Shown: positions 32,794-46,485, numbered from the stretch's first letter. The stretch: 64,000 nt of DNA from an uncultured Gammaproteobacteria bacterium (GCA_964573235.1 CAZNIV010000003.1:1482-65481), one strand, 5' to 3'. The notes: a model not told the origin generated them from the sequence alone. Made by a program: numbers and translations.

Positions 32794-34482
32794 TTATCTA
32801 ATTTTACCATTAATTAGCCCATTTTTATCTAAAGCGGCATCAGTATTAATTGGTTTGGTGCTATAAGTTAAGGTTTCACCAGTAAGGGTGTCTTGGGCGC
32901 TAGCGGTAGTGGTGTTGATGATTTTTCCAACCATTCCGCCTTGGTCGGCAGTAGGAGTAAACTCTACTTCAAAGGCGCAAGCAATGCTAGGATAATTAGC
33001 ACTAGGGGCATTCACGGTATCAACATTCCAAGTGATTAAGTTATTTTTGGTATCGTAATGAACTCCACCATTAGCGGTAGTAGTGTATTGCCCGGTCCAG
33101 CGGACATTTTGACCAAGAGAAGTTTTAACTTGTAAATCTCTTAGATCATTTATATTGCTAGTAACTTGCATGGCTACCCAATAGCGAGTGGCCTCGCCGA
33201 TTTTCGGCGGTAATGGGCCAAAGCCAATTTGGTCACCTTCGGCGGTGAAGTATTTTAGGGTCACTGGCAAGGTCATTAAAGTGTTGATTTTTTGATTGAT
33301 AACATCAGCTGATTGAAAGCCAATATTGCCATCTGGCATAGTGTAATTTAGTTGGGTGGCTATGTTAAGAAAATTATTTTTTTGTTCACCATCCTTAAGA
33401 TTAATAGAAAAGGGAATGACTATAGACGCTTCTGGATTTAGACTGGCTAAGGCTAAAGTATTAGTGCGATCAAATTTAATGTTAGTGTCGCCTAATAGAT
33501 TATCCTCAGTAATATTAAGGGTGATATTTTTGACGGTAAAGTTTTCATGATTAATAATGGTGGCCAAATAAGAATTAACGCCAAAATTGGCATTTGTACT
33601 ATTGGCTTTAATGACTAAATCAATCTTAGATTTTTTAAAATTAATGGTAATGTTATTTTCAGCTAATTGATTTGAGCTATTGTCGGTAGTAATTTGGATC
33701 TTAAAAGAGTTGAGGGTTTTATTAATATTGTTTTTTACAGTTTTGGCAACAATCGTGCCAGTTAAACTTTGCTTAGGGTTTAGGGTAATGTTTTTTATGG
33801 GCAAAGTAGAAGAAGTGATGATTAAATTATTAGATAATAAATTATGACTCAGGGATAAGTTATTAATCGTGTTGTCACTTTTATTTTCAAGCGTAACATA
33901 GAAGGTAACTGGTTGACCGGCAAAAGCCCAGTCGGTAGCCTTTATGGTTAGAGACAATGGAGAGTCGCTGATATTTATTAGCTGGTTAATTTTTTTGGTA
34001 CGCTTGGCAGTATTGCCCTCGGGGATGAAAGTTAGTATTGAGTAAATTTGTTGTTCAGTTTTTGGCATCGCCCAAAACTTGCCGGAAAGGTTAATGGCGC
34101 CCTTGGCATTAATATCTAAGTCACCTAAGTTAAAGGTGATAGTTTTTTGGTCAAATTTTTGACTTGGAGATCCGCCAATTAATTCAAAGCTGTTAGGTAG
34201 ATTAAAAGTTAGTGTGGCTTGATTAAGTTGTTTACCTGATTTATTTTCGTAAGAAAAAATAAGATTAGTAACATCACCAGCAACAGTAGATTGATTTTGA
34301 TTTTCAGCGATTAAATCAATTTTATTTTCAATACGAAAGGCCACTTTATCTAAATGGCTATATAAACTAAGTGCCAATAAAATACCGACTAAAAAAAGCA
34401 AGAAAAAATTAAATACCAATGGGACCTTTTTTGTTTCAAATCGGCTGGCCGCAAAATCTTTTAGGAGTTTTTTTAGTTTCAT
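32794..34482 (-). CDS. Membrane-anchored, repeat-rich surface protein (DUF11/CARDB-like beta-sandwich modules, unverified)
   Basis: N-terminal TM (VPLVFNFFLLFLVGILLALSLY). N/T/S-rich beta-strand periodicity with recurring L.F.L.N...G....L.G modules. Confidence 0.6.
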   Translation of the reverse strand: MKLKKLLKDFAASRFETKKVPLVFNFFLLFLVGILLALSLYSHLDKVAFRIENKIDLIAENQNQSTVAGDVTNLIFSYENKSGKQLNQATLTFNLPNSFELIGGSPSQKFDQKTITFNLGDLDINAKGAINLSGKFWAMPKTEQQIYSILTFIPEGNTAKRTKKINQLINISDSPLSLTIKATDWAFAGQPVTFYVTLENKSDNTINNLSLSHNLLSNNLIITSSTLPIKNITLNPKQSLTGTIVAKTVKNNINKTLNSFKIQITTDNSSNQLAENNITINFKKSKIDLVIKANSTNANFGVNSYLATIINHENFTVKNITLNITEDNLLGDTNIKFDRTNTLALASLNPEASIVIPFSINLKDGEQKNNFLNIATQLNYTMPDGNIGFQSADVINQKINTLMTLPVTLKYFTAEGDQIGFGPLPPKIGEATRYWVAMQVTSNINDLRDLQVKTSLGQNVRWTGQYTTTANGGVHYDTKNNLITWNVDTVNAPSANYPSIACAFEVEFTPTADQGGMVGKIINTTTASAQDTLTGETLTYSTKPINTDAALDKNGLINGKIR

Positions 34483-34485
34483 ATA

Positions 34486-36585
34486 TTATTGGTTATTATT
34501 GATTATGGAGCTGATAGTAAATACGTTACTACTCAAAGCAATAATTTCTTTTTTGCCATCACCGTTTAAATCAGCTACGGTTACGCTGATGCCTTGACGA
34601 TTTTTCGGTACATAAGCCATAAAAGAGGAAAGTTGTTTACCGGTGTTAGAAAATACTTTTATTTCTGGCAAGGCATTGAAGCCGGCGCCAGTAATAATTT
34701 CTGCCCTGCCATCACCATTAACATCGCCAGCGGTTAGATTAACCCCATTGCGTAATTTATTATTATAAGCAAAAAAATCATTTATTAACTTGCCATTAGT
34801 ATCAAAAACTTTAACATGTGGACCGCCTCCATTGCCAGCTCCAGCGATAATTTCTACCTTGTTGTCGTCATTAATATCACCGACAGCGACATTTACTCCT
34901 AGCTTGATAGTTTTATTATTAAAAGCAGAAAACGATTTTGATTCTTGGCCGTACCAATTGAAAATTTTAATAGTATTGCCACCACCATTTTCTGATCCGG
35001 TGATAATTTCTTTTTTGCCATCGCCATTAATATCGGCTACAGCCAAAGAGATGCCATCTTGATATTTTTCACCATAAGGCATGAAGGTGGCAATGTTAAT
35101 TCCAGTTTCGCCAATAACATTAATAGTATTATTAGAAGCGCTAACGGTTTCAATAGTGCCATTATTATTAACATCGGTTTTGATTACTTTGTTGCTACCC
35201 TTTTGGTTTTTGTCGTAAGTAAAAAAACCGGTGCGAATATTATTTCCGGTGCTATCAAAAATTCTGGCGAAGGCGCCATTGATAAATACCGCATCTTTGA
35301 TTTCATTAACCCGACGGAGAAGAATAATGCCATCACGAGAAGCGAGGGTGACTTTGTTTATGATAGAGCCGTCATTAGTAATAGGATCTTGGTTGCCATG
35401 AATTTTTTCATACTCGCCATCAAAATAGGCTTCTTGGGGGTAGTCGGTAGAATTAACTAAAACAATGCCGTTAGTGAAATCGCGTTGCCAGAGACCACTA
35501 GTCATTTCGGGGTTGTTGGGGTTGAGTAAATTTTTTGTTCGTGATTGTGGTTCACCTAGATTAATATCAAATTCATCATACCACCAAAAGTGTTCACGCA
35601 ATTGTGGGCCGTAATCCATGGCATAAAAACCATTAAAGAGTAAGGAAGAGGCTAGAGTAAAACGCATTTTTTGATAGTCTTGGTTATTGGTGTTACCGGT
35701 ATTGCTATCTATTATATTAATGCGAGGCAAATAGCCGTTACCGTCTACTTGCTCATATTTTTTCATAGAACCAAGCCAGTCACCTTCGTATTGTTCCGGA
35801 AACCCTTCAAACATACGACCATTTAAGTATTGATGGTATAAGCCATCGCCATTGCCGACGATTAAATATTTGCTATCAATACGGGTGCGTAGTTTTTTGA
35901 GCAGATCAATATTGCCCTGTTGCCAGAGGCGGTCAATTTTTTCTTTGTTGTCATATATGCCGTCATTATCGATATCAATTTTGGCGTCCACCCAAGAAAC
36001 GGTTTGCCAGATATTATCTAATAATAAGCCATCCCATAAGCCCGTATTTAAAATTTTGTTTTGGTAAAAATCAGCCAAGAAATCGCCGTAAGTTTTATTG
36101 TTTTCATCTTTACTATAAGGATTCATTGAGACATTACCAGTCCACCAGGAAATATTTTTTCCATCAGTGGTTTTTAATTGCCATTGAGTTTTGGCGGCGC
36201 TAGTTAAATCATGCCACAAACCAATACCGCTTGGCTCGACTTCGTTTAGTCGGTATAGTGGTATTTCGTTGGAAGAAGTATAGGCGAGAATGATAATGTT
36301 TTTATTAAGTTGGCGCATTAGCCTGATAGCATCTGCAGAGTCATTTTGAGCTTGCATGCTTAAAGAAACTAAATCATATTTAGCTAGTTTTTTAGCTTCT
36401 TCTAAAGTAACGGGAGTTTTCCAAAACATGTTGGCCACTTTTGGATATTTGCCATCATTTTTTTGAGTCGCATCACCAGTGAAGTCGGGAAAAAATAAAA
36501 CCAAAGCTAAGAAAGCCGAAGCAAGGATGGTAGCCAAGGTGAAATCTAATTTTTGATATTTATTTCTTTTTCTTCTCATAATCAA
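34486..36585 (-). CDS. Membrane-anchored fusion of a glycoside-hydrolase-like TIM-barrel region and C-terminal FG-GAP/VCBS repeats
   Basis: N-terminal TM. GLWDGLLLDNIW is a GHL-type motif. At least four repeats of the form D(I/V/L)NGDGKKEIITG...GG..IKVF. Confidence 0.7.
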   Translation of the reverse strand: MIMRRKRNKYQKLDFTLATILASAFLALVLFFPDFTGDATQKNDGKYPKVANMFWKTPVTLEEAKKLAKYDLVSLSMQAQNDSADAIRLMRQLNKNIIILAYTSSNEIPLYRLNEVEPSGIGLWHDLTSAAKTQWQLKTTDGKNISWWTGNVSMNPYSKDENNKTYGDFLADFYQNKILNTGLWDGLLLDNIWQTVSWVDAKIDIDNDGIYDNKEKIDRLWQQGNIDLLKKLRTRIDSKYLIVGNGDGLYHQYLNGRMFEGFPEQYEGDWLGSMKKYEQVDGNGYLPRINIIDSNTGNTNNQDYQKMRFTLASSLLFNGFYAMDYGPQLREHFWWYDEFDINLGEPQSRTKNLLNPNNPEMTSGLWQRDFTNGIVLVNSTDYPQEAYFDGEYEKIHGNQDPITNDGSIINKVTLASRDGIILLRRVNEIKDAVFINGAFARIFDSTGNNIRTGFFTYDKNQKGSNKVIKTDVNNNGTIETVSASNNTINVIGETGINIATFMPYGEKYQDGISLAVADINGDGKKEIITGSENGGGNTIKIFNWYGQESKSFSAFNNKTIKLGVNVAVGDINDDNKVEIIAGAGNGGGPHVKVFDTNGKLINDFFAYNNKLRNGVNLTAGDVNGDGRAEIITGAGFNALPEIKVFSNTGKQLSSFMAYVPKNRQGISVTVADLNGDGKKEIIALSSNVFTISSIINNNQ

Positions 36586-37753
36586 TTAATGCTTCATATA
36601 TGGCGGATATTTTTTCGTAGTGTTTATTGGCAGAATAATCTAAACTAAAGGCGTAAGCATTTTTACCCATCCTTGTTGTTTCATTTGGGTTGTCTAGTAA
36701 ATATTGTATTTGCTCAGCCAGTTCTTGGTGATTGTCGCTAGTAAAAAGCAAGCCAGTTTGTTGTGGTTGGATTAGGTTGTTAAATGATCCGGCACGGGAA
36801 GCAATGACTGGCTTGCCACAGGCGAAGGTTTCTAGGGCGCCTAAGCCGAAAGTTTCGTGAACCCGAGAAGGAAAAACGGCAAAGTCAGCATTTTGAATAA
36901 AATTAAGCAATTCGTTTTTTTCTTTGCGTCCGATAAAAACCACCTTGTCAGTTAAGTTTAATTTTTTGACTTGATTTTTTAAATTAATTTCTTCTGGCCC
37001 CGAACCAATGATGACTAATTTGTGGTCGGTTTTAATTTGGGCAAAAGCATTAATTAAAACATCGGCACCTTTGCTTTCATCTAAACGGCCAAAGAATAAG
37101 ACATAAGGATAGCCGATAGGCTTGGGTTGAGTTTGATATCTTTCTAAATCGATAAAGTGGGGAATGACAATAATTTTTTGGGCGTCAAAACCATTTTTAA
37201 TTAGTTGTTCTTTGACAAATAGTGAGGGCGCAATAAACATATCTACATAACGGCGATAGATATTAATTTTTTTATGAAAAGCAAATTCTAGTTTTAGCAG
37301 TAGATCCACTAGACGAGAATTTTTAGCGGGTTGATTTTGGCCGATGCGTAAGGTGTAGTCGTGCTTGATTAGTTTAAAGTCATGAACGGTCATTACAATG
37401 GGTAAATTAAATTTTTTGATCGCTGGCAAAATAGAAGGCGATATTTGATGATAAATATTATGAAGATGGATTAAATCTGGGCGCTCTTTTTTAATTAGGG
37501 CGGAAATTTTTCTGGCGGCGCTGAACGACCAAAATAAGCGACCTAGGCGCCAAAAGCTAGACCAGCTAAATTTATCCAATGGTAAGTCGCTAATAAATAA
37601 GTCACTATTTGGGGAGGGGTAGTTTAGGGGGTGTTTTTGGGAGAAAGTTACATTTTTGTGGCCTTTTTTTTCTAATAAATTCATCAATGAAAATAGGTAA
37701 GTTTCGGTACCGCCTTTAGGATAAAAAAATTTGTTTATATGTAATATTTTCAT
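36560..37753 (-). CDS. Family 4 glycosyltransferase
   Basis: E-x7-E region HETFGLGALETFACGKPVIASRAG with a GT-B N-terminal domain. Confidence 0.85.
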   Translation of the reverse strand: MKILHINKFFYPKGGTETYLFSLMNLLEKKGHKNVTFSQKHPLNYPSPNSDLFISDLPLDKFSWSSFWRLGRLFWSFSAARKISALIKKERPDLIHLHNIYHQISPSILPAIKKFNLPIVMTVHDFKLIKHDYTLRIGQNQPAKNSRLVDLLLKLEFAFHKKINIYRRYVDMFIAPSLFVKEQLIKNGFDAQKIIVIPHFIDLERYQTQPKPIGYPYVLFFGRLDESKGADVLINAFAQIKTDHKLVIIGSGPEEINLKNQVKKLNLTDKVVFIGRKEKNELLNFIQNADFAVFPSRVHETFGLGALETFACGKPVIASRAGSFNNLIQPQQTGLLFTSDNHQELAEQIQYLLDNPNETTRMGKNAYAFSLDYSANKHYEKISAIYEALIDYEKKKK

Positions 37754-37757
37754 ATAT

Positions 37758-39218
37758 TTAATTTTGAATACTATTTTTGTTCACCACGGTGATAGTGCGA
37801 ATTAGACCCAGGATAATCCAGAAAAAAATGCCGGTTAAGTTAGTTTCTAAATAGGGCTGAAAGAAGCTAGCAATAAAAAATAGGACACCAGCGCTAATGA
37901 TTGGTAGGTAGTAAGGGGTTAATTCATGATTGAGATAAATTTGTTTAAAACTAGTAGCTAAAACGGAGATGATAAAAGCAATGAATAAGATAAAACCAAT
38001 TAGGCCGGTTTGAATGAGAATGGCCAACGGGGAATTATGTAGATTGCGTAATTCTTCGTAGTTTTGCCAATCGCCAGTTTGCAAGTTGACACGCTTGCCA
38101 AAGCCGGTGCCAAGCATTGGGTTTTTTAGCCAAGAGTTTAAAGCAATGGTCCACAAGTCTTTGCGCCAAATAGCACTAGCATCTTCTTGTAAATTAACAA
38201 TAGAAGAAGCGCGAGTTACTAGATATTCTCCGGTAGTATTAATATTAGCGCTAAGTTGTTGGCGTGGATACAATGAAGTAATAGTAAGAATGATGGCGAT
38301 GGCGCTAAAAATAATTAAAATATTTTTGGCAGAAAAATTAAGGATTTTCTTTTTTGCTTCTTTGGGAATAATTAAGATTAAAATTACCAGAGCAACAATT
38401 AAGGCTAGCCAGAGATGACGCATTAAAGATACGGCAATGCCAAGTAGCCAAATCCATAAAATTAATCCGGCTATTTGTTGGTTAGCGAATTTTTTAAATG
38501 CCAAAAAGCTTAATAAGATTAAAGAGGAAAGACATAAATAAAAAGCGTGAGTGCCAGCTAGTAAGCGCAGGCCAGTAGTGGATAGGGGAGTAAATTCAGT
38601 CCACAAGCCTTGCCCAGTGATTAAGCCGTAGAGGATAAAAGGAATAATGATTACGCCACCCAAAAGAATTACTTCTATAAGTCGTTTTAAATCTTTGGCT
38701 TTTTGAACTGAATAGATAATTAAAAAGTAGATGGCGGAATAAAAGACATAATTTTTTAAGGTAGAAAAGGCGATATCGACTTGCACATTGTAGTCGGTTA
38801 AGGAACGAATAAAGGTAAATAGATTAATCAATATAAATATAATTAGGAGTGTTTCTGGCCAACCCCAAATGAATTGCACGCGCGCTCTTTTTTGTAGGCG
38901 TAAATGGATTAAAAAACTAATAGCAGTTAAGATAATTAAAATATCCAAGGGATATAGTTTATAGATGGTTTGGTCAATGACTAATGATTGCAAGGTAAAA
39001 TATCGTTCAAAGACCATAGTAAGTAGAATAATCATGTTCAATCCCAATTGTTCGCTGTAGAAAATAAAAGCTAAGCCCGTAATGACAAAAATCGAATACA
39101 GCCAGATATTGGGAGCCAGTATCATTAAGAGGATTAAGATGGCAAAATAAATAAAAGCCAGACTATTGATTAGAATAGTACGGCTTTTGGTATTAGAATT
39201 TTGGTCGATGGCCAGCAT
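37758..39218 (-). CDS. O-antigen ligase/polymerase-like (Wzy_C) polytopic membrane protein
   Basis: At least 10 TM segments and a large loop followed by LRNLHNSPLAILIQTGLIGF, resembling the Wzy_C motif. Confidence 0.7.
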   Translation of the reverse strand: MLAIDQNSNTKSRTILINSLAFIYFAILILLMILAPNIWLYSIFVITGLAFIFYSEQLGLNMIILLTMVFERYFTLQSLVIDQTIYKLYPLDILIILTAISFLIHLRLQKRARVQFIWGWPETLLIIFILINLFTFIRSLTDYNVQVDIAFSTLKNYVFYSAIYFLIIYSVQKAKDLKRLIEVILLGGVIIIPFILYGLITGQGLWTEFTPLSTTGLRLLAGTHAFYLCLSSLILLSFLAFKKFANQQIAGLILWIWLLGIAVSLMRHLWLALIVALVILILIIPKEAKKKILNFSAKNILIIFSAIAIILTITSLYPRQQLSANINTTGEYLVTRASSIVNLQEDASAIWRKDLWTIALNSWLKNPMLGTGFGKRVNLQTGDWQNYEELRNLHNSPLAILIQTGLIGFILFIAFIISVLATSFKQIYLNHELTPYYLPIISAGVLFFIASFFQPYLETNLTGIFFWIILGLIRTITVVNKNSIQN

Positions 39219-39221
39219 AAT

Positions 39222-39992
39222 TTATTTTTGGGATGAATCCTGACTTGGTTCTTCTGGAGTGTAATGAGGAGTAGGGTATTGATATTGATTAAGTAAGTTT
39301 TCGTTAGTAGATTCGGCTAGTAATTCCGACTCAAGAGAGGCTTGATTGTTGTATTGGTTAACTAATTCTTTACGATTGCTAGTAATGGAGAATAGTCTTT
39401 GTTGAGGAAAAATAACGATCAAGGTAAGGCTTAAAAATAACCCAGCCACCAAACCGAGTAAGCTGTTGCGTAATATTTTTGGTTCGGCCCATTTATCGGA
39501 AACAGATGGTTCATTAACAGTGCGAATTAAAACATTACTACCAAAGCCGTGATAGTATTGATGATTATTTTTAATAGTAGTAATAATGGCGTTAATCATT
39601 TTTTCGGCTTGATCGCGATCTGGATGTAAGACAGCCACTTCCATGATGCCGTTGCCATCTTTAATTTTTACGGTTACCATATTTTTCCAATTGTTCAATC
39701 TTTTTTCGTCAGTAGTGCCAAGATTATCAATTAAAGCAGGGTTGGTTTTGTAGACTTGACTAATAAAGGAATTAGAATAAGCTACTTCGCCTAAAATTCC
39801 GGCGATATAGTCAGAAGAGCGGGAGGCGGTGTATGGGTCGATGCTATTCTGATTGAAAACGACAATGATTTTAGAGGTAGCTAGATATTTTGGTGTTTGC
39901 ATAAAGCTTAAAAGTAAGCTTAAGGCACCAAAAAAAAGCGTAATAATTGTTACGGTAATGAGGTTGTGACGATTGAATAAGGTTTGGTTCAT
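39222..39992 (-). CDS. Wzz/PCP-like bitopic protein (two TMs flanking an external domain)
   Basis: TM1 (ITVTIITLFFGALSLLLSF), external domain, then TM2 (LLGLVAGLFLSLTLIVIF). Start moved to ATG 39992 because the annotated TTG start at 40079 is a -35 box. Confidence 0.45.
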   Translation of the reverse strand: MNQTLFNRHNLITVTIITLFFGALSLLLSFMQTPKYLATSKIIVVFNQNSIDPYTASRSSDYIAGILGEVAYSNSFISQVYKTNPALIDNLGTTDEKRLNNWKNMVTVKIKDGNGIMEVAVLHPDRDQAEKMINAIITTIKNNHQYYHGFGSNVLIRTVNEPSVSDKWAEPKILRNSLLGLVAGLFLSLTLIVIFPQQRLFSITSNRKELVNQYNNQASLESELLAESTNENLLNQYQYPTPHYTPEEPSQDSSQK

Positions 39993-40049
39993 AGCTATTT
40001 GGCTAAAATTAGGTTTATTTAAAATATAAATTATCTGTTTAAACTTTTT

Positions 40050-40078
40050 TATTATAACAAATTTAACATAATTTGTCA
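40050..40078 (-). promoter_or_regulatory. Consensus sigma70 promoter of the surface-glycan operon
   Basis: Minus strand reads TTGACA (40078-40073), 17-nt spacer, TGT-TATAAT (40055-40050). Confidence 0.55.
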
Positions 40079-40115
40079 ATAGGGGTTAATTTTATTAAAG
40101 ATTTGTATTTAAAAG

Positions 40116-40144
40116 TAGACATTAATGTCAAAAATTATTATAAT
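40116..40144 (+). promoter_or_regulatory. Sigma70 promoter of the small-membrane-protein/mraY transcription unit
   Basis: TAGACA (40116-40121), 17-nt spacer, TATAAT (40139-40144). Back-to-back with the minus-strand promoter. Confidence 0.5.
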
Positions 40145-40156
40145 GATACCAAATAA

Positions 40157-40537
40157 TTGCCAAATATGATACTTTCTTTTTTGGAGGAGAAAATTAAAAC
40201 CAATCCGGCACGACGGGACAAAGTTATTCTAATCAACGCTTTATTGGCTTTGGTTTTTAATGTAGCCCTATGGGTGTTATTTTTGTATTATTTTCATTCA
40301 GCTAGTGAATATATTGTGTTGAAGTATAATATCTATTTTGGCATCAGTGACTTAGGACTATGGTATTATGTGCTATTTTTGCCCTTAATAGGTTTGTTGG
40401 TTTTGTTGATAAATTATTTTGTGGCTTTGCTTATTTTTTTGCGCAATACTTATTTGAGTTATTTATTATCTTTCAGTTCTAGTATTGTTAATTTATTGTT
40501 ATTAATTGCTGGGTTGTTTTTAATTTATAAAAATTAA
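40157..40537 (+). CDS. Small 3-4 TM membrane protein of unknown function (intact copy)
   Basis: ORF of 126 aa from TTG 40157 (ATG alternative at 40166). Hydrophobic segments ALLALVFNVALWVLFLYYF, VLFLPLIGLLVLLINYFVALLIF, IVNLLLLIAGLFLIY. Confidence 0.6.
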   Translation: MPNMILSFLEEKIKTNPARRDKVILINALLALVFNVALWVLFLYYFHSASEYIVLKYNIYFGISDLGLWYYVLFLPLIGLLVLLINYFVALLIFLRNTYLSYLLSFSSSIVNLLLLIAGLFLIYKN

Positions 40538-40551
40538 TTAGTTATTATATT

Positions 40552-40707
40552 ATGTCTATAGAGTTTTTGGTGGTCAAAGTATTCTTTTTTGCTTTTATTT
40601 CTTTTGTAATTGCTATTTTGTGGACGCCATTATTAACTCATTTTTTGTATAAATATCGCTTGGGACAAAGTTATTCTAATCAACGCTTTATTGGCTTTGG
40701 TTTTTAA
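40552..40707 (+). pseudogene. mraY 5' fragment created by the duplication (first 38 codons, then out-of-frame tail)
   Basis: MSIEFLVVKVFFFAFISFVIAILWTPLLTHFLYKYRLG is identical to the intact MraY N-terminus, then QSYSNQRFIGFGF and a stop at 40705-40707. Confidence 0.7.
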
Positions 40708-40984
40708 TGTAGCCCTATGGGTGTTATTTTTGTATTATTTTCATTCAGCTAGTGAATATATTGTGTTGAAGTATAATATCTATTTTGGCATCAGTGACTT
40801 AGGACTATGGTATTATGTGCTATTTTTGCCCTTAATAGGTTTGTTGGTTTTGTTGATAAATTATTTTGTGGCTTTGCTTATTTTTTTGCGCAATACTTAT
40901 TTGAGTTATTTATTATCTTTCAGTTCTAGTATTGTTAATTTATTGTTATTAATTGCTGGGTTGTTTTTAATTTATAAAAATTAA
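40691..40984 (+). pseudogene. 5'-truncated duplicate of the small membrane-protein gene
   Basis: 97 aa identical to the C-terminal 97 aa of ORF 40157..40537. Only a TTG start is available and the original N-terminus and promoter are missing. Confidence 0.55.
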
Positions 40985-40998
40985 TTAGTTATTATATT

Positions 40999-42108
40999 AT
41001 GTCTATAGAGTTTTTGGTGGTCAAAGTATTCTTTTTTGCTTTTATTTCTTTTGTAATTGCTATTTTGTGGACGCCATTATTAACTCATTTTTTGTATAAA
41101 TATCGCTTGGGTAAGCAAATTCGCGCCAGTGAAGATGCGCCAATCTTTGCGCAGTTACATCAAAAAAAATCTGGCACGCCGGTAATGGGTGGTATGTTGG
41201 TATGGGTAACCACCTTGGTATTGGCGTTACTTTTTTGGTTGTTAGGATTTTTATTTAATGGGATGTTTAGCGGTCTTAATTTTTTAAGTCGCGCCCAAAC
41301 CTGGTTACCGCTGGGAGCATTGGTTATTACGGCTTTGGTTGGTATGGTGGATGATTATTTAAATGTGCGTCGTATTGGGCCAAAGGGGGGCGGTTTTTCT
41401 ATGAAGCATCGTTTGATTTTATATACAATCATTGCCATTGTGGTGGCTTGTTGGTTTTACTTTAAGTTAGATTGGGATTTAGTGCGAGTGCCTTTTTTGG
41501 GAGATTTTAATATTGGTTGGTGGTATATTCCATTCGCAGTATTTGTAGTAGTGGCGACCGCCTTTTCGGTTAATGAAACAGATGGCTTAGATGGTTTGGC
41601 TGGTGGCACCTTAATGACTTCTTTTTTGGCGATTGGTGCCATTGCTTTTATCCAGCAGCGTTATGACTTGGCTACTTTTTGTGCTGTAATTGCTGGGTCT
41701 TTATTGGCATTTTTATGGTTTAATATTGCTCCGGCTCGTTTTTTTATGGGTGATACGGGCGCTATGTCTATGGGGGTGGTATTAGCCATTATCGCCCTGC
41801 TAACCAATTCTGTTTTATTGTTGCCAGTTATTGGTTTGGTTTTTGTCTTAGAATCAGTTTCGGTGTTAATCCAAATGATTTCTAAAAAGTTAAGAAAAGG
41901 AAAAAAGATTTTTTTATCTACTCCGATCCATCATCACTTCGAGGCCGTTGGTTGGCCAGAAACTAAAATAGTGATGCGTGCCTGGGTAATATCGATGGTA
42001 GTAGCGGTAGCTGGTTTAGCTTTGTTTTTAACAGATGTTAAAACTAATAAAGATAATCAATATACAACGCAATGCAAAATTTTAGATAATAAATTAGATC
42101 ATAAATAA
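40999..42108 (+). CDS. mraY: Phospho-N-acetylmuramoyl-pentapeptide transferase
   Basis: NETDGLDGLA, FMGDTGAMSMG, PIHHHFE motifs. 10-TM architecture. Confidence 0.95.
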   Translation: MSIEFLVVKVFFFAFISFVIAILWTPLLTHFLYKYRLGKQIRASEDAPIFAQLHQKKSGTPVMGGMLVWVTTLVLALLFWLLGFLFNGMFSGLNFLSRAQTWLPLGALVITALVGMVDDYLNVRRIGPKGGGFSMKHRLILYTIIAIVVACWFYFKLDWDLVRVPFLGDFNIGWWYIPFAVFVVVATAFSVNETDGLDGLAGGTLMTSFLAIGAIAFIQQRYDLATFCAVIAGSLLAFLWFNIAPARFFMGDTGAMSMGVVLAIIALLTNSVLLLPVIGLVFVLESVSVLIQMISKKLRKGKKIFLSTPIHHHFEAVGWPETKIVMRAWVISMVVAVAGLALFLTDVKTNKDNQYTTQCKILDNKLDHK

Positions 42109-42110
42109 TT

Positions 42111-42779
42111 ATGACTGAAACGAAAATAACAGTGGGCGGTCAAGTATTTGATCGTTTTCATGTTAAGACTCATGTAGTAATGTTTGGGGATAAAATTGAA
42201 GACGTAGTAGAAAAATATGCTAAGCCAATTTTGCAAGCAAATGATTGGTTGTTTATTAGTGAGAAAGTAGTAGCGGTTACCCAAGGTCGCGCTTATAAAA
42301 TTGTAGATATTAAAGTTTCATTTTTAGCTAATTTTTTAGTGAAGTTTGTTTATAAGTCACCGTATGGTATTGGCTTAGGCCGACCGCAAACAATGCAATT
42401 AGCTATTAACGAAGCGGGGGCTTGGCGTATTTTGTTAGGCGCTTTAGTTTCGGCTATTACTAAACCGTTTGGGGTTCGCGGTATTTTTTATAAAGTAGTG
42501 GGCAAGGGAATTAATGCGATTGATGGCCCATGTGACTATACTCTGCCGCCTTATAATCAATATGCTGTTCTTGGCCCTAAAGACCCGGATAAGGTAGCTG
42601 CTATGCTGGCGGAGAAAAATAATTGCGAAGTGGTGATTGTGGATGCTAATGATTTAGGAGTGGCCATTTTAGGTGCCAGCAAAAATGTTGATCGGAAGTT
42701 AGCAGCGGAAATTTTTCGGGATAATCCATTAGGGCAAACAAATGAACAAACCCCACTTTGTGTAGTGAGAAAAATTTAA
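42111..42779 (+). CDS. CofE / F420-0:gamma-glutamyl-ligase-like domain protein
   Basis: WLFISEKVVAVTQGRAY and EVVIVDANDLGVAILGAS resemble F420_ligase-family motifs. ~220 aa, tightly packed between mraY and murD. Confidence 0.5.
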   Translation: MTETKITVGGQVFDRFHVKTHVVMFGDKIEDVVEKYAKPILQANDWLFISEKVVAVTQGRAYKIVDIKVSFLANFLVKFVYKSPYGIGLGRPQTMQLAINEAGAWRILLGALVSAITKPFGVRGIFYKVVGKGINAIDGPCDYTLPPYNQYAVLGPKDPDKVAAMLAEKNNCEVVIVDANDLGVAILGASKNVDRKLAAEIFRDNPLGQTNEQTPLCVVRKI

Positions 42780-42780
42780 T

Positions 42781-44181
42781 ATGGATTTTAAAAATAAAAA
42801 AATAGTGGTTATGGGCTTGGGTCTTTATGCGGATGGCTCAGGTATTTCGGCCACTAAATATTTATTAGCCCAAGGTGCTAATATAGTAGTGACTGATTTA
42901 AAAACGGCTGAACAACTTAAATCGCAATTAGAGCGCTTAGGGGATTTAGTTAATCAGGTAGAATTGGTTTTGGGTCAGCATCGGGAGAGTGATTTTTTGG
43001 ACGCTGATTATATTATTCGTAATCCGGGCGTGCCAAAATCGTCTAGATTTTTGCAGATCGCTAGAGAACATAATATTCCGATTGAATCTGATATTTCTTT
43101 ATCATTTAAGCTTATAAATAAAGATCGTTTGTTGGCGGTAACAGGAACTCGTGGCAAGAGTACAACTACTAGCTTGCTTTATGAGATTATTAAAGCTAAT
43201 GATAAGCGAGCAGTTTTGGGGGGTAATATTACTAAATCGCCGTTAGCCCAAATGTCTGCTGTAAAAAAGGGTGGTCCGGTGGTTTTGGAGTTATCTTCTT
43301 TTTTATTAGAAACTTTGGAGCCGTTTAAAGTGTCTCCGCATGTGGCTGTGTTTACTAATATTTACCCAGATCATTTAAATGCTTATAATAATATTGCTGA
43401 ATATGTGGCAGCTAAAGAAAATATTTGGCGGTGGCAAGAAAAAGATGATTTTGTAATTTTAAATCGTGATAATTCGATTACTAAAGCCATGGGAAAGAGG
43501 GTGGTTAGTCAGCGCTTGTGGTTTTCTCTAAAGTCATTTACTCAAGAGAATGGTGTTTTTGTAAAAAAAGGTAAAATTGTGGCGCGTTTGAACGGGGAGG
43601 AAAAAAATATTTTGGCTGTTAAGCAATTAAAAATGATTGGTGAACATAATGTGGCCAATGCTTGCGCGGCGACGGCAGCCGCCTTGGTTTATGCCGTTCC
43701 TTTGGCAGTTATTAAGGTAGTGTTAAAAAATTTTAAGGGCATTGCTGATCGCTTAGAGTTACTGAAAGAAGTTAGGGGTGTAAAATATTATAACGATACC
43801 ACTTCGACTACACCAGAAGCGGGATTAGTGGCGCTGGATGCTTTTAAAAAATACAAAAAGAAAATCGTGATGATTGCTGGCGGTTCTGATAAGGGGTTAA
43901 ATTTTTCTGAAATTGTTAAAAAAATGAAAAGCCATTGTGAGGCCTTGGTGCTTTTAAATGGCACAGGTACGGTTAGATTATTAGAGACTATTAAACAATC
44001 TAAATTGCGTTGCCCTGTGCTTGTGGTTGATTCTATGTTAGAGGCGGTTAATCAGGCCAGTGGTTTAGTTAAAAAAGGTGGTATTGTTTTATTATCCCCT
44101 TGTTGTGCTAGCTTTGGCATGTTTTCCAATGAGTTTGATCGAGGGGAAAAATATCGCTCAGCGGTGAAAAAAATTAAATGA
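42781..44181 (+). CDS. murD: UDP-N-acetylmuramoylalanine--D-glutamate ligase
   Basis: Mur ligase P-loop GTRGKSTTT, NDTTSTTPEA, and dcw position after mraY. Confidence 0.9.
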   Translation: MDFKNKKIVVMGLGLYADGSGISATKYLLAQGANIVVTDLKTAEQLKSQLERLGDLVNQVELVLGQHRESDFLDADYIIRNPGVPKSSRFLQIAREHNIPIESDISLSFKLINKDRLLAVTGTRGKSTTTSLLYEIIKANDKRAVLGGNITKSPLAQMSAVKKGGPVVLELSSFLLETLEPFKVSPHVAVFTNIYPDHLNAYNNIAEYVAAKENIWRWQEKDDFVILNRDNSITKAMGKRVVSQRLWFSLKSFTQENGVFVKKGKIVARLNGEEKNILAVKQLKMIGEHNVANACAATAAALVYAVPLAVIKVVLKNFKGIADRLELLKEVRGVKYYNDTTSTTPEAGLVALDAFKKYKKKIVMIAGGSDKGLNFSEIVKKMKSHCEALVLLNGTGTVRLLETIKQSKLRCPVLVVDSMLEAVNQASGLVKKGGIVLLSPCCASFGMFSNEFDRGEKYRSAVKKIK

Positions 44182-45332
44182 AAGAAAATAAAATTAAAAA
44201 TTGGTTAAGGAGTTTTTTTTATAAATCAAATGGGCAACAGGCCGATTGGTATCTTATTGGCTTGGTAACCTTTTTGTTATTTTTTGGTTTGGCTATTTTG
44301 TCATCCGCTTCATCGGTAGAAAGTTATCGAGTGTATGGTGATACTTATTGGCATTTGCGCCACCAGTTAATATATGGAGTGCTACCAGGTGTATTGTTTT
44401 TTGTTTTTTTTGCCTTTTTTGATTATCAAAAGCTGCGTAAATGGGCTTTTCCAATATTTTTATTAGCCATTTTTTTATTAGTACTGGTTTTTATTCCTGG
44501 GTTTGGTAGTACTAACAATACTTTTGCCAAAAGTTGGATTCATCTTTTTGGTTTTTCTTTTCAGCCAGCAGAGGTTGCTAAGCTATCATTTATTCTTTAT
44601 TTATCATCTTGGTTAGCATCGCGTGATAGTGATGTGATTAAAGATGCGAAGCAGGGATTTTTTCCATTCCTTTTTTCTTTGGGCGTTATTGGTGTATTAA
44701 TGATTATGCAACCAGATTGGGGCACTTTATTAATTATTGTGTCGATTGCGATAGCTATTTTTTTTGTGGCCGGTGGTAGTTTAAAGCATATTTTTTGGTT
44801 GATTATTTGTGGAATTGGGGTTTTTTCTTTATTAGTATCTAAATCGGCCACTACCTTAAAACGCTTGACTACTTTTTTACATCCAGAGCTGGATCCTAAG
44901 GGTATGGGGTATCAGATTAATCAAGCATTGTTGGCGGTTGGCTCTGGTGGTTGGTTGGGTCGCGGATTTGGTCATTCGCGCCAAAAGTTTTCTTATTTGC
45001 CAGAGGTTTATGGTGATTCGGTTTACGCTATTGCGGCGGAGGAATTAGGTTTTGCATTTTCGGTATTGATTGTGTTGGTATTTTTATTATTGTTTTTTAG
45101 AGGATTGAAGATTGCTAATAATTGTGAGGATAAGTTTGGTAAATATGTAGCAGTTGGTATAGCGACTTGGTTGATTACTCAGGCGTTTTTAAATATCGGG
45201 GCCATTATTGGTATTTTTCCTTTGACCGGCGTGCCGTTGCCATTTATTTCTTATGGTGGCACATCGCTGGCGGTGGCTTTGGCGGCTTGTGGTATTTTAG
45301 TTAATATTTCTCGCCAAACAAATCGCTACTAA
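44178..45332 (+). CDS. ftsW: SEDS-family peptidoglycan polymerase FtsW
   Basis: QPDWGT and TGVPLPFISYGGTS motifs. ATGA overlap with murD. Confidence 0.9.
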   Translation: MKENKIKNWLRSFFYKSNGQQADWYLIGLVTFLLFFGLAILSSASSVESYRVYGDTYWHLRHQLIYGVLPGVLFFVFFAFFDYQKLRKWAFPIFLLAIFLLVLVFIPGFGSTNNTFAKSWIHLFGFSFQPAEVAKLSFILYLSSWLASRDSDVIKDAKQGFFPFLFSLGVIGVLMIMQPDWGTLLIIVSIAIAIFFVAGGSLKHIFWLIICGIGVFSLLVSKSATTLKRLTTFLHPELDPKGMGYQINQALLAVGSGGWLGRGFGHSRQKFSYLPEVYGDSVYAIAAEELGFAFSVLIVLVFLLLFFRGLKIANNCEDKFGKYVAVGIATWLITQAFLNIGAIIGIFPLTGVPLPFISYGGTSLAVALAACGILVNISRQTNRY

Positions 45333-45384
45333 TTGCCAAGATGGTCGGCTTTTGGTATTTTAAGTAGTAGAAAGGAATTAAATT

Positions 45385-46485
45385 ATGAACAATCAAACTG
45401 TAAGAGTTAGTGAAAAAATTATTAATCAAGGGCGTATTTTGTTTGCTGGAGGTGGTACTATGGGTTCCGTTAGTCCATTAATTGCCGTTCAGGAATACAT
45501 TAAAAAACAATTTCCTAATATTAAGTTTTTGTTTGTTGGCACTTATAGTGGTCCAGAAAAACAAGCTGTAGAAAGTTATAAGATTGTTTTTAAGGCTATT
45601 GCTTCTGGAAGATTGCGTCGTTATTTTTCTTGGCGTAATATTACCGATCCGTTTTTGGTAATTTGGGGATTTTTGCAGAGCTTGGTTATTCTTATTAAAT
45701 TTAAACCGAGCGTTGTAATGATTGCAGGTGCTTTTGTAGGGGTGCCCGTGGCTTGGGCGGCCTGGCTATTGGGTATTCCGGTAGTGATTCATCAACAAGA
45801 TATTTTACCGGGCTTGGCTAATAAGTTAATGCAAAGAGTGGCTAAAAGAATTACTGTTTCGTTCGATATTTCACTTAATGATTATTTGCAATCAAAAGTA
45901 GTATTAACCGGTAATCCGGTTAGAGAAGAATTTTTGTCTTGCGATTTACAGCATAGTCGCGATTTTTTTAATTTAAAAAGTGATTTACCAGTATTGTTAG
46001 TATTGGGCGGTGGAACCGGTGCGCAAATTATTAATGAATCAATAGTTAAGGCTTTAGCGGAGTTGTTGCAATTTTGTCAGGTGATTCATATTACGGGTAA
46101 GGGCAAGGCGATAAGAGTAGAAGCAGAAAATTATCATCAGTTTGAGTTCTTGTCTCATGAAATGCCAGATGCGCTTTGCGCGGCAGATGTAGTAGTAAGC
46201 AGGGCTGGTCTTTCTACTTTAACAGAATTAATTGCTATGGCTAAGCCGACTATTTTAGTACCTATTCCGGGGCATCAAGAAGATAACGCTTTATTTTTTC
46301 AAAAAAACAATGCAGTAACTTCTATTTCTCAAGACGCATTTAATTCGGAATTAATCATTTCTTTGGTTAAAGATATTATGTTTGATAAGGCCCGTAAAGA
46401 TAATTTGTCTCGTAATATTTCTAAGATGATGGAAGTTGGTGGGGCAGAAAAAGTAGCAGCCATCTTGTTGTCAGTAGCTAAATAA
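45385..46485 (+). CDS. murG: Undecaprenyldiphospho-muramoylpentapeptide beta-N-acetylglucosaminyltransferase
   Basis: GGGTMGSVSPLIAV and LGGGTGAQ glycine-rich loops, GT28 architecture. Confidence 0.9.
   Translation: MNNQTVRVSEKIINQGRILFAGGGTMGSVSPLIAVQEYIKKQFPNIKFLFVGTYSGPEKQAVESYKIVFKAIASGRLRRYFSWRNITDPFLVIWGFLQSLVILIKFKPSVVMIAGAFVGVPVAWAAWLLGIPVVIHQQDILPGLANKLMQRVAKRITVSFDISLNDYLQSKVVLTGNPVREEFLSCDLQHSRDFFNLKSDLPVLLVLGGGTGAQIINESIVKALAELLQFCQVIHITGKGKAIRVEAENYHQFEFLSHEMPDALCAADVVVSRAGLSTLTELIAMAKPTILVPIPGHQEDNALFFQKNNAVTSISQDAFNSELIISLVKDIMFDKARKDNLSRNISKMMEVGGAEKVAAILLSVAK

Follow-up and report, generated by a model that had tools for sequence, protein, structure and literature searches.

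Two perfect head-to-tail copies of a 447-bp unit that spans the boundary between a gene for a small membrane protein and mraY are present in the DNA examined here, a stretch of 64,000 nucleotides from an uncultivated bacterium that we call the window. Judging from the sequences of other assemblies, the duplication is private to one assembly and a single copy is both the ancestral and the prevalent arrangement. On balance, we favor the explanation that this is a very recent, near-neutral tandem duplication mediated by microhomology and private to the lineage or to a sub-population of it.

Direct string comparison showed that positions 40215-40661 are the same, letter for letter, as positions 40662-41108. 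TRF reported one array at this site (40215-41111) with a period of 447, 2.0 copies, 100% matches, 0 indels, and a score of 1794. These results bear out the perfect tandem duplication that had been described in a sequence-only reading of the window. The identity of the two copies continues for 3 bp to the right (GGG, to 40664 and 41111) and for 0 bp to the left. This GGG lies at 40662-40664, where the copies meet, and occurs again at 40215-40217 and 41109-41111. The same reading had pointed to a GGG microhomology at all three junction positions; it is there, but it is only mildly unusual since 7-8% would have it by chance. The novel junction between copy 1 and copy 2 (40657-40670, CGCTT-GGG-ACAAAG) is the string CGCTTGGGACAAAG, which has a single occurrence in the window and is contained in 0 of 100 shuffles. 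The wider string across this junction is TATCGCTTGGGACAAAGTT, the left boundary of the duplicated unit is GGCACGACGGGACAAAG, and the right boundary is TATCGCTTGGGTAAGCAA. An exact 25-mer scan identified the 447-bp pair as the sole repeat of this kind in the window and the window contains zero N.

Copy 1 of the unit (40215-40661) contains the small gene from codon 17 to its stop codon, a 14-bp spacer, and approximately the first 37 codons of mraY. The open reading frames that result from the duplication match the anatomy proposed earlier, that is, an intact small gene, a 51-codon chimera, a 5'-truncated copy of the small gene, and an intact mraY, all on the + strand. The intact small gene (40157-40537) has a TTG start at 40157; other assemblies start this gene at an ATG at 40166, which gives a protein of 123 aa. 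The chimeric open reading frame (40552-40707) is predicted to encode residues 1-38 of MraY, including the first transmembrane segment (TM1), followed by a 13-aa out-of-frame tail for a total of 51 aa. The second small-gene copy (40691-40984) encodes a putative protein of 97 aa from a TTG at 40691. The intact mraY gene (40999-42108) encodes a protein of 369 aa that matches PF00953 (E=1.5e-32). This protein is identical in three contigs from other assemblies (L001-L003) and is 75% identical to Patescibacteria MraY. It is longer than the MraY proteins of the closest relatives (369 aa versus approximately 345-354 aa), which cover only about 94% of it; the additional residues form a polar C-terminal tail (...TDVKTNKDNQYTTQCKILDNKLDHK).

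The sequence-only reading had called the second copy of the small gene truncated. The 5' truncation was confirmed and the native start is lost, but this description needs refinement because the copy retains every residue that is nearly invariant in the family and thus the whole conserved core. Some representatives of the family are called at approximately 100 aa and start where the truncated copy starts. No Shine-Dalgarno-like sequence was visible before the TTG at 40691 when the sequence was read by eye.

The small open reading frame is a genuine gene. All of its nucleotide differences from a 96%-identical strain (L006) are synonymous (23 of 23), and the protein belongs to a family with 507 representatives at E<=1e-3 in a library clustered at 50%. 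Members of this family contain the motif YNIYFGIS..G.WY..L.LP..G. An AlphaFold (AF2) model of the small protein with a pLDDT of 90 predicts an N-terminal helix, TM1, a β-hairpin, TM2, and TM3, with three long helices. A search of Pfam and NCBIfam with this protein gave no match. The small gene is located directly upstream of mraY in four of four lineages examined, down to 24% identity (window 40166-40537; L013 249-623; L015 312-686; L004 3676-4047). This membrane protein of approximately 120 aa may be associated with MraY.

Independent contigs that contain the locus were recovered by exact-protein look-ups. The locus is collinear and 99.9-100% identical across other public assemblies of the same population. 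Three of the recovered contigs cover the unit and both flanks and each contains one copy. L001 (ENA ERZ27300010, assembled with MEGAHIT) matches the window at 38685-40664 and 40662-42889 with one mismatch and has the unit as a single copy. L008 (NCBI MAG GCA_037133135.1, JBAXOS010000012.1, 8542 bp) corresponds to window positions 33901-42889 at >99.9% identity with one copy. L006 (Logan assembly of SRR14578347) represents the 96%-identical strain (48 of 1245 bp differ) and is also single-copy. In all three of these contigs the unit runs directly into the remainder of mraY and copy 2 (40662-41108) has no counterpart. L001 and L008 may come from related data, as they have a common end position in the window and a common SNP. 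An additional contig (L007, ENA ERZ27300137) matches 42366-46472 at 100%. The extra copy aside, independent contigs bear out the window base for base from 33901 to 46472.

Other contigs from a 100%-identical population cross one boundary of the unit. The left boundary is crossed by L011 (JGI 3300021520) and L012 (Logan SRR7053533), the right boundary is crossed by L002 (JGI 3300021520) and L003 (ENA ERZ27300065), and none of the four breaks at the boundary that it crosses. We considered using contig ends as a proxy for branching in the assembly graph, where a duplicated allele might cause a break at k-1, and gave this argument little weight because both boundaries exist in the duplicated allele too. 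It is weakened further by the observation that L011 and L012, which come from assemblers with different k, both stop at 40316, and 40317-40445 is uncovered there. Stopping at the same base suggests low coverage in that sample, so junction reads may have been missed.

The junction string was absent from all 15 fetched loci. GTDB species genomes and JGI metagenome contigs were scanned with the terminal 26 bases of the unit, a pattern that can match either allele. The only match in the GTDB species genomes was a distant relative (L004) with a normal mraY, and the only match among the JGI metagenome contigs was L005, which is the same contig as L002. Neither the junction pattern nor the chimeric open reading frame was found in GTDB species genomes, JGI metagenome contigs, or a collection of 15 billion proteins, with the exception of the presumed source contig. 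The 51-aa chimeric open reading frame is on record only on one NCBI contig of 66,154 bp, presumably the source of the window, that also encodes the identical MraY and small protein. Protein look-ups for the 51-aa chimera, the 97-aa truncated copy, and a 106-aa partial product, which is expected if the unit formed its own de Bruijn contig, retrieved no encoding contig; by protein look-up the 97-aa product is not on record elsewhere.

The single-copy assemblies and the private junction rule out a conserved or fixed feature. The sequence-only reading had left two alternatives, a recent or population-variable duplication and an assembly artefact, and had asked whether single-copy variants exist in the population. 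They do, and every other assembly that spans the locus is single-copy. A junction that is private to one contig supports this pair of alternatives and fits both of them.

The two copies differ at 0 of 447 positions and co-occurring strains differ at approximately 4% of positions (48 of 1245, L006). Thus, the event, if biological, is far younger than the divergence of the strains. A G at 40456 and 40903, in both copies, sets this strain apart from L001 and L008. In the near-identical L001 and L008, the single-copy allele has GGG at both arms, and in the 96%-identical strain (L006) the left arm reads GAG. In this sequence, random pairs of breakpoints have at least 3 bp of microhomology 7-8% of the time, compared with a naive expectation of about 2%. 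Microhomology of at least 3 bp has been reported in approximately 70% of de novo and approximately 50% of strain-variable microbial tandem duplications, with the de novo set limited to events that fit within 150-bp reads so that its application to a 447-bp unit is an extrapolation (bioRxiv 10.64898/2026.02.28.708716). These frequencies give a likelihood ratio of about 6-10-fold, by which the microhomology favors a polymerase-mediated event over a random end-to-end join, although this is not decisive.

We infer that the junction is present in cells and not merely in the assembly, and that it probably arose by template switching or slippage between the two GGG triplets in replication. In this scheme, a nascent strand whose end lay at the GGG of mraY codon 38 would re-pair with the GGG located 447 bp upstream, in codons 17-18 of the small gene, and the interval between the triplets would then be copied a second time. 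The resulting order would be promoter, intact small gene, 51-aa MraY-TM1 chimera, 5'-truncated small gene, and intact mraY. Because the breakpoints are in two adjacent genes, one intact copy of each gene is kept. Instability is expected as well, since recombination between the two 447-bp copies can restore a single copy.

Three other origins were considered and rejected. Homologous recombination between flanking repeats (R-D-R-D-R) does not fit as the match extends only 3 bp and there is no other repeat of at least 25 bp. Two haplotypes from different strains placed in tandem would not give identical copies with a common G at 40456 and 40903. For a mobile element or programmed repeat, we found no notable inverted repeats and no recombinase nearby.

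A putative strong promoter (TAGACA-17-TATAAT, 11 of 12 matches) precedes the small gene at 40116-40144 on the + strand and is not part of the duplicated unit. In L006, which differs at approximately 4% of positions elsewhere (96% identity), the 70 nt before this gene are 100% conserved. This site is one of two back-to-back, near-consensus sigma-70-type promoter-like sites (window 40051-40144) in the intergenic region at 39993-40165; the other is TTGACA-17-TATAAT with a TG at 40079-40051 on the - strand. No terminator-like site was found within the duplicated unit. Over the 337 nt before the intact mraY (40662-40998) the sequence does not differ from that of the single-copy allele, so the translation-initiation context of mraY is unchanged. 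All that changes for mraY is that its distance from the promoter-like site grows by 447 transcribed bases. With an unduplicated promoter and no change in the 337 nt before mraY, we expect the event to be nearly neutral. The sequence-only reading had suggested that a TM1-only peptide or the altered distance between the promoter and mraY could matter. The distance is indeed altered, but for the same two reasons the possible impact is smaller than was suggested.

This arrangement resembles microhomology-mediated tandem duplications (MTDs) and strain-variable tandem duplications in that the two copies are perfect and head-to-tail, the single-copy allele has short exact microhomology at each breakpoint, and no long repeat flanks the unit; like the strain-variable class, it is in one genome and missing from conspecifics (bioRxiv 10.64898/2026.02.28.708716). 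The sequence-level features by which MTDs are recognized are observed here, namely adjacent identical copies, at least 1 bp of microhomology (3 bp in this case), and no long flanking direct repeat. Unlike most events in that study, the unit is longer at 447 bp and is known from assembled sequence alone. The microhomology-mediated explanation is also supported by the lack of N and of other repeats in the window, with no sign of a systematically faulty assembly. Counting against it are that the duplication is seen in one assembly only and that the 3-bp microhomology is weak, and template switching in library amplification yields microhomology too. The RecA-independent short-junction duplications of classical bacterial genetics are a related class.

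The main alternative, for which there is a substantial chance that we judge to fall somewhat short of even, is an assembly or library artefact. In that case the organism has one copy and the second was created by artificial concatenation in the assembler or by post-assembly merging or gap-closing. The same estimate covers a variant in which chimeric reads, from PCR or MDA template switching, seeded a loop in the assembly graph. The zero divergence between the copies is in line with an artefact, as is the presence of the duplication on one contig alone with five other read sets or assemblies having no trace of it, although failure of independent assemblies to reproduce the repeat is also what would be expected for a real, private duplication. 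Artificial concatenation is a documented class of error in MAGs (Chen et al. 2020, Genome Res, PMC7111523). The cases in that paper, which include artificial concatenation and unmerged overlaps, are similar to ours in that an identical repeat of hundreds of bp is found in a MAG contig, can be detected with a repeat finder, and is unreproduced elsewhere. Unlike those cases, the repeat in the window has no Ns at the join, only two copies, and microhomology at the junction, and it lies within a 66-kb contig, neither at a contig end nor on a small circular element.

The window itself provides several observations that argue against an artefact. There is no N, scaffolding gap, or contig end at the join, no other segment is duplicated in 64 kb, and the remainder of the window is, base for base, as in independent contigs. 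The repeat is internal, about 40 kb into a contig of at least 64 kb. A 3-bp microhomology is expected in only 7-8% of blind end-to-end joins and the overlap length of 447/450 fits no usual k-1 overlap. On the side of an artefact, unitig assemblers of the MEGAHIT type, which produced the sister assemblies (k141_ names), to our knowledge cannot give a contig that traverses the 447-bp unit twice; thus, the source contig would have come from a different assembler or a post-processing step. Conversely, we know of no way for de Bruijn assemblers to invent a junction k-mer that is absent from the reads, although chimeric amplification reads could supply one. Some reads, therefore, probably carried the junction.

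We think it very improbable that the duplication was selected. Selection that kept it at an appreciable frequency could act on a shortened, core-complete copy of the small protein, on a TM1 micropeptide of MraY, or on altered expression of mraY; under the micropeptide option, which is included in the same low estimate, the TM1-only product would modulate MraY or shield it from an inhibitor. That the truncated copy keeps all of the nearly invariant residues, at a position where representatives of approximately 100 aa also start, is consistent with selection, and the synteny of the small gene with mraY in four lineages suggests a functional link. However, no second lineage has the duplication, with relatives and conspecifics all single-copy, and with zero divergence the copies have had no time to acquire a signature of selection. 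The unit also lacks a promoter and the start of the small gene, no Shine-Dalgarno-like sequence is visible before the TTG of the shortened copy, and the mraY fragment is fused out of frame to an arbitrary tail of 13 aa. Similar to adaptive gene amplification (bioRxiv 10.64898/2026.05.22.727201; PMC11111574), this is a direct tandem duplication beside an essential, drug-targeted gene (mraY). Unlike adaptive gene amplification, no complete gene with its start or promoter is doubled, there are only two copies, and no increase in dosage of a full-length product is expected. The unit runs from codon 17 of the small gene to codon 38 of mraY and thus contains neither a complete expressible gene with its start nor a promoter, making it unlike a dosage amplification. 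There is no recurrence and no increase beyond two copies; the window has exactly 2.0 copies and all others are single-copy.

The duplication is located at the start of a cluster of cell-wall and division genes on the + strand that includes the small membrane gene, mraY, a CofE-like gene (PF01996), murD, ftsW, murG, a Mur ligase gene, and murB, followed by genes for a ribosome hibernation factor and secA. The Mur ligase gene between murG and murB is assigned as murC from its position in the cluster. The CofE-like gene (window 42111-42779), located between mraY and murD, encodes a 222-aa protein of the F420-0:gamma-glutamyl ligase family (PF01996). Such a gene is unusual in a cell-wall cluster, and its product is not named by any NCBIfam model. 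The gene is kept in relatives with 75%-identical MraY (L013 1696-2364, L014 1682-2350).

On the other strand is a divergent glycan-assembly block that encodes a Wzz-like protein, a Wzy_C protein, a GT4 glycosyltransferase, and a GHL15/FG-GAP protein. Positions 1-243 of L001, which correspond to window 38442-38684 within the Wzy_C gene (37758-39218), have no match whatever to the window. The remaining 3.7 kb of L001 is 99.95% identical to the window, and L008 matches the window at 38442-38684. Either this end of L001 is chimeric or the O-antigen-ligase-like gene has a segment here that varies between strains.

The window has a low GC content of 36% and a GC skew that is positive in every 2-kb bin regardless of gene orientation. 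No tRNA, rRNA, or other Rfam family was found at the gathering score in the 64 kb. The closest MraY proteins (<=75% identity) are labelled Patescibacteria, Falkowbacteria, or Buchananbacteria. These labels indicate that the organism is an uncultivated Patescibacteria (CPR) bacterium. L004 (CAZRDN010000054.1), from a GTDB-representative MAG titled "uncultured Gammaproteobacteria bacterium", has the Patescibacteria-type arrangement of small membrane gene and mraY and contains a 39-base stretch that is 95% identical to the mraY of the window. This contig may have been mislabelled or misbinned.

The phenomenon is ordinary either way, being a common class of mutation or a known assembly error. In practical terms, the result is a flag on the public record of the deposited contig. 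An artefact would matter for annotation only, as that contig would then contain two spurious genes, one of 51 aa and one truncated. If it is real, this is one more common, transient mutation, in an uncultivated Patescibacteria population beside an essential cell-wall gene, with little expected consequence. The more interesting biology is beside the duplication, where a conserved membrane protein without a family assignment is encoded directly upstream of mraY in four lineages.
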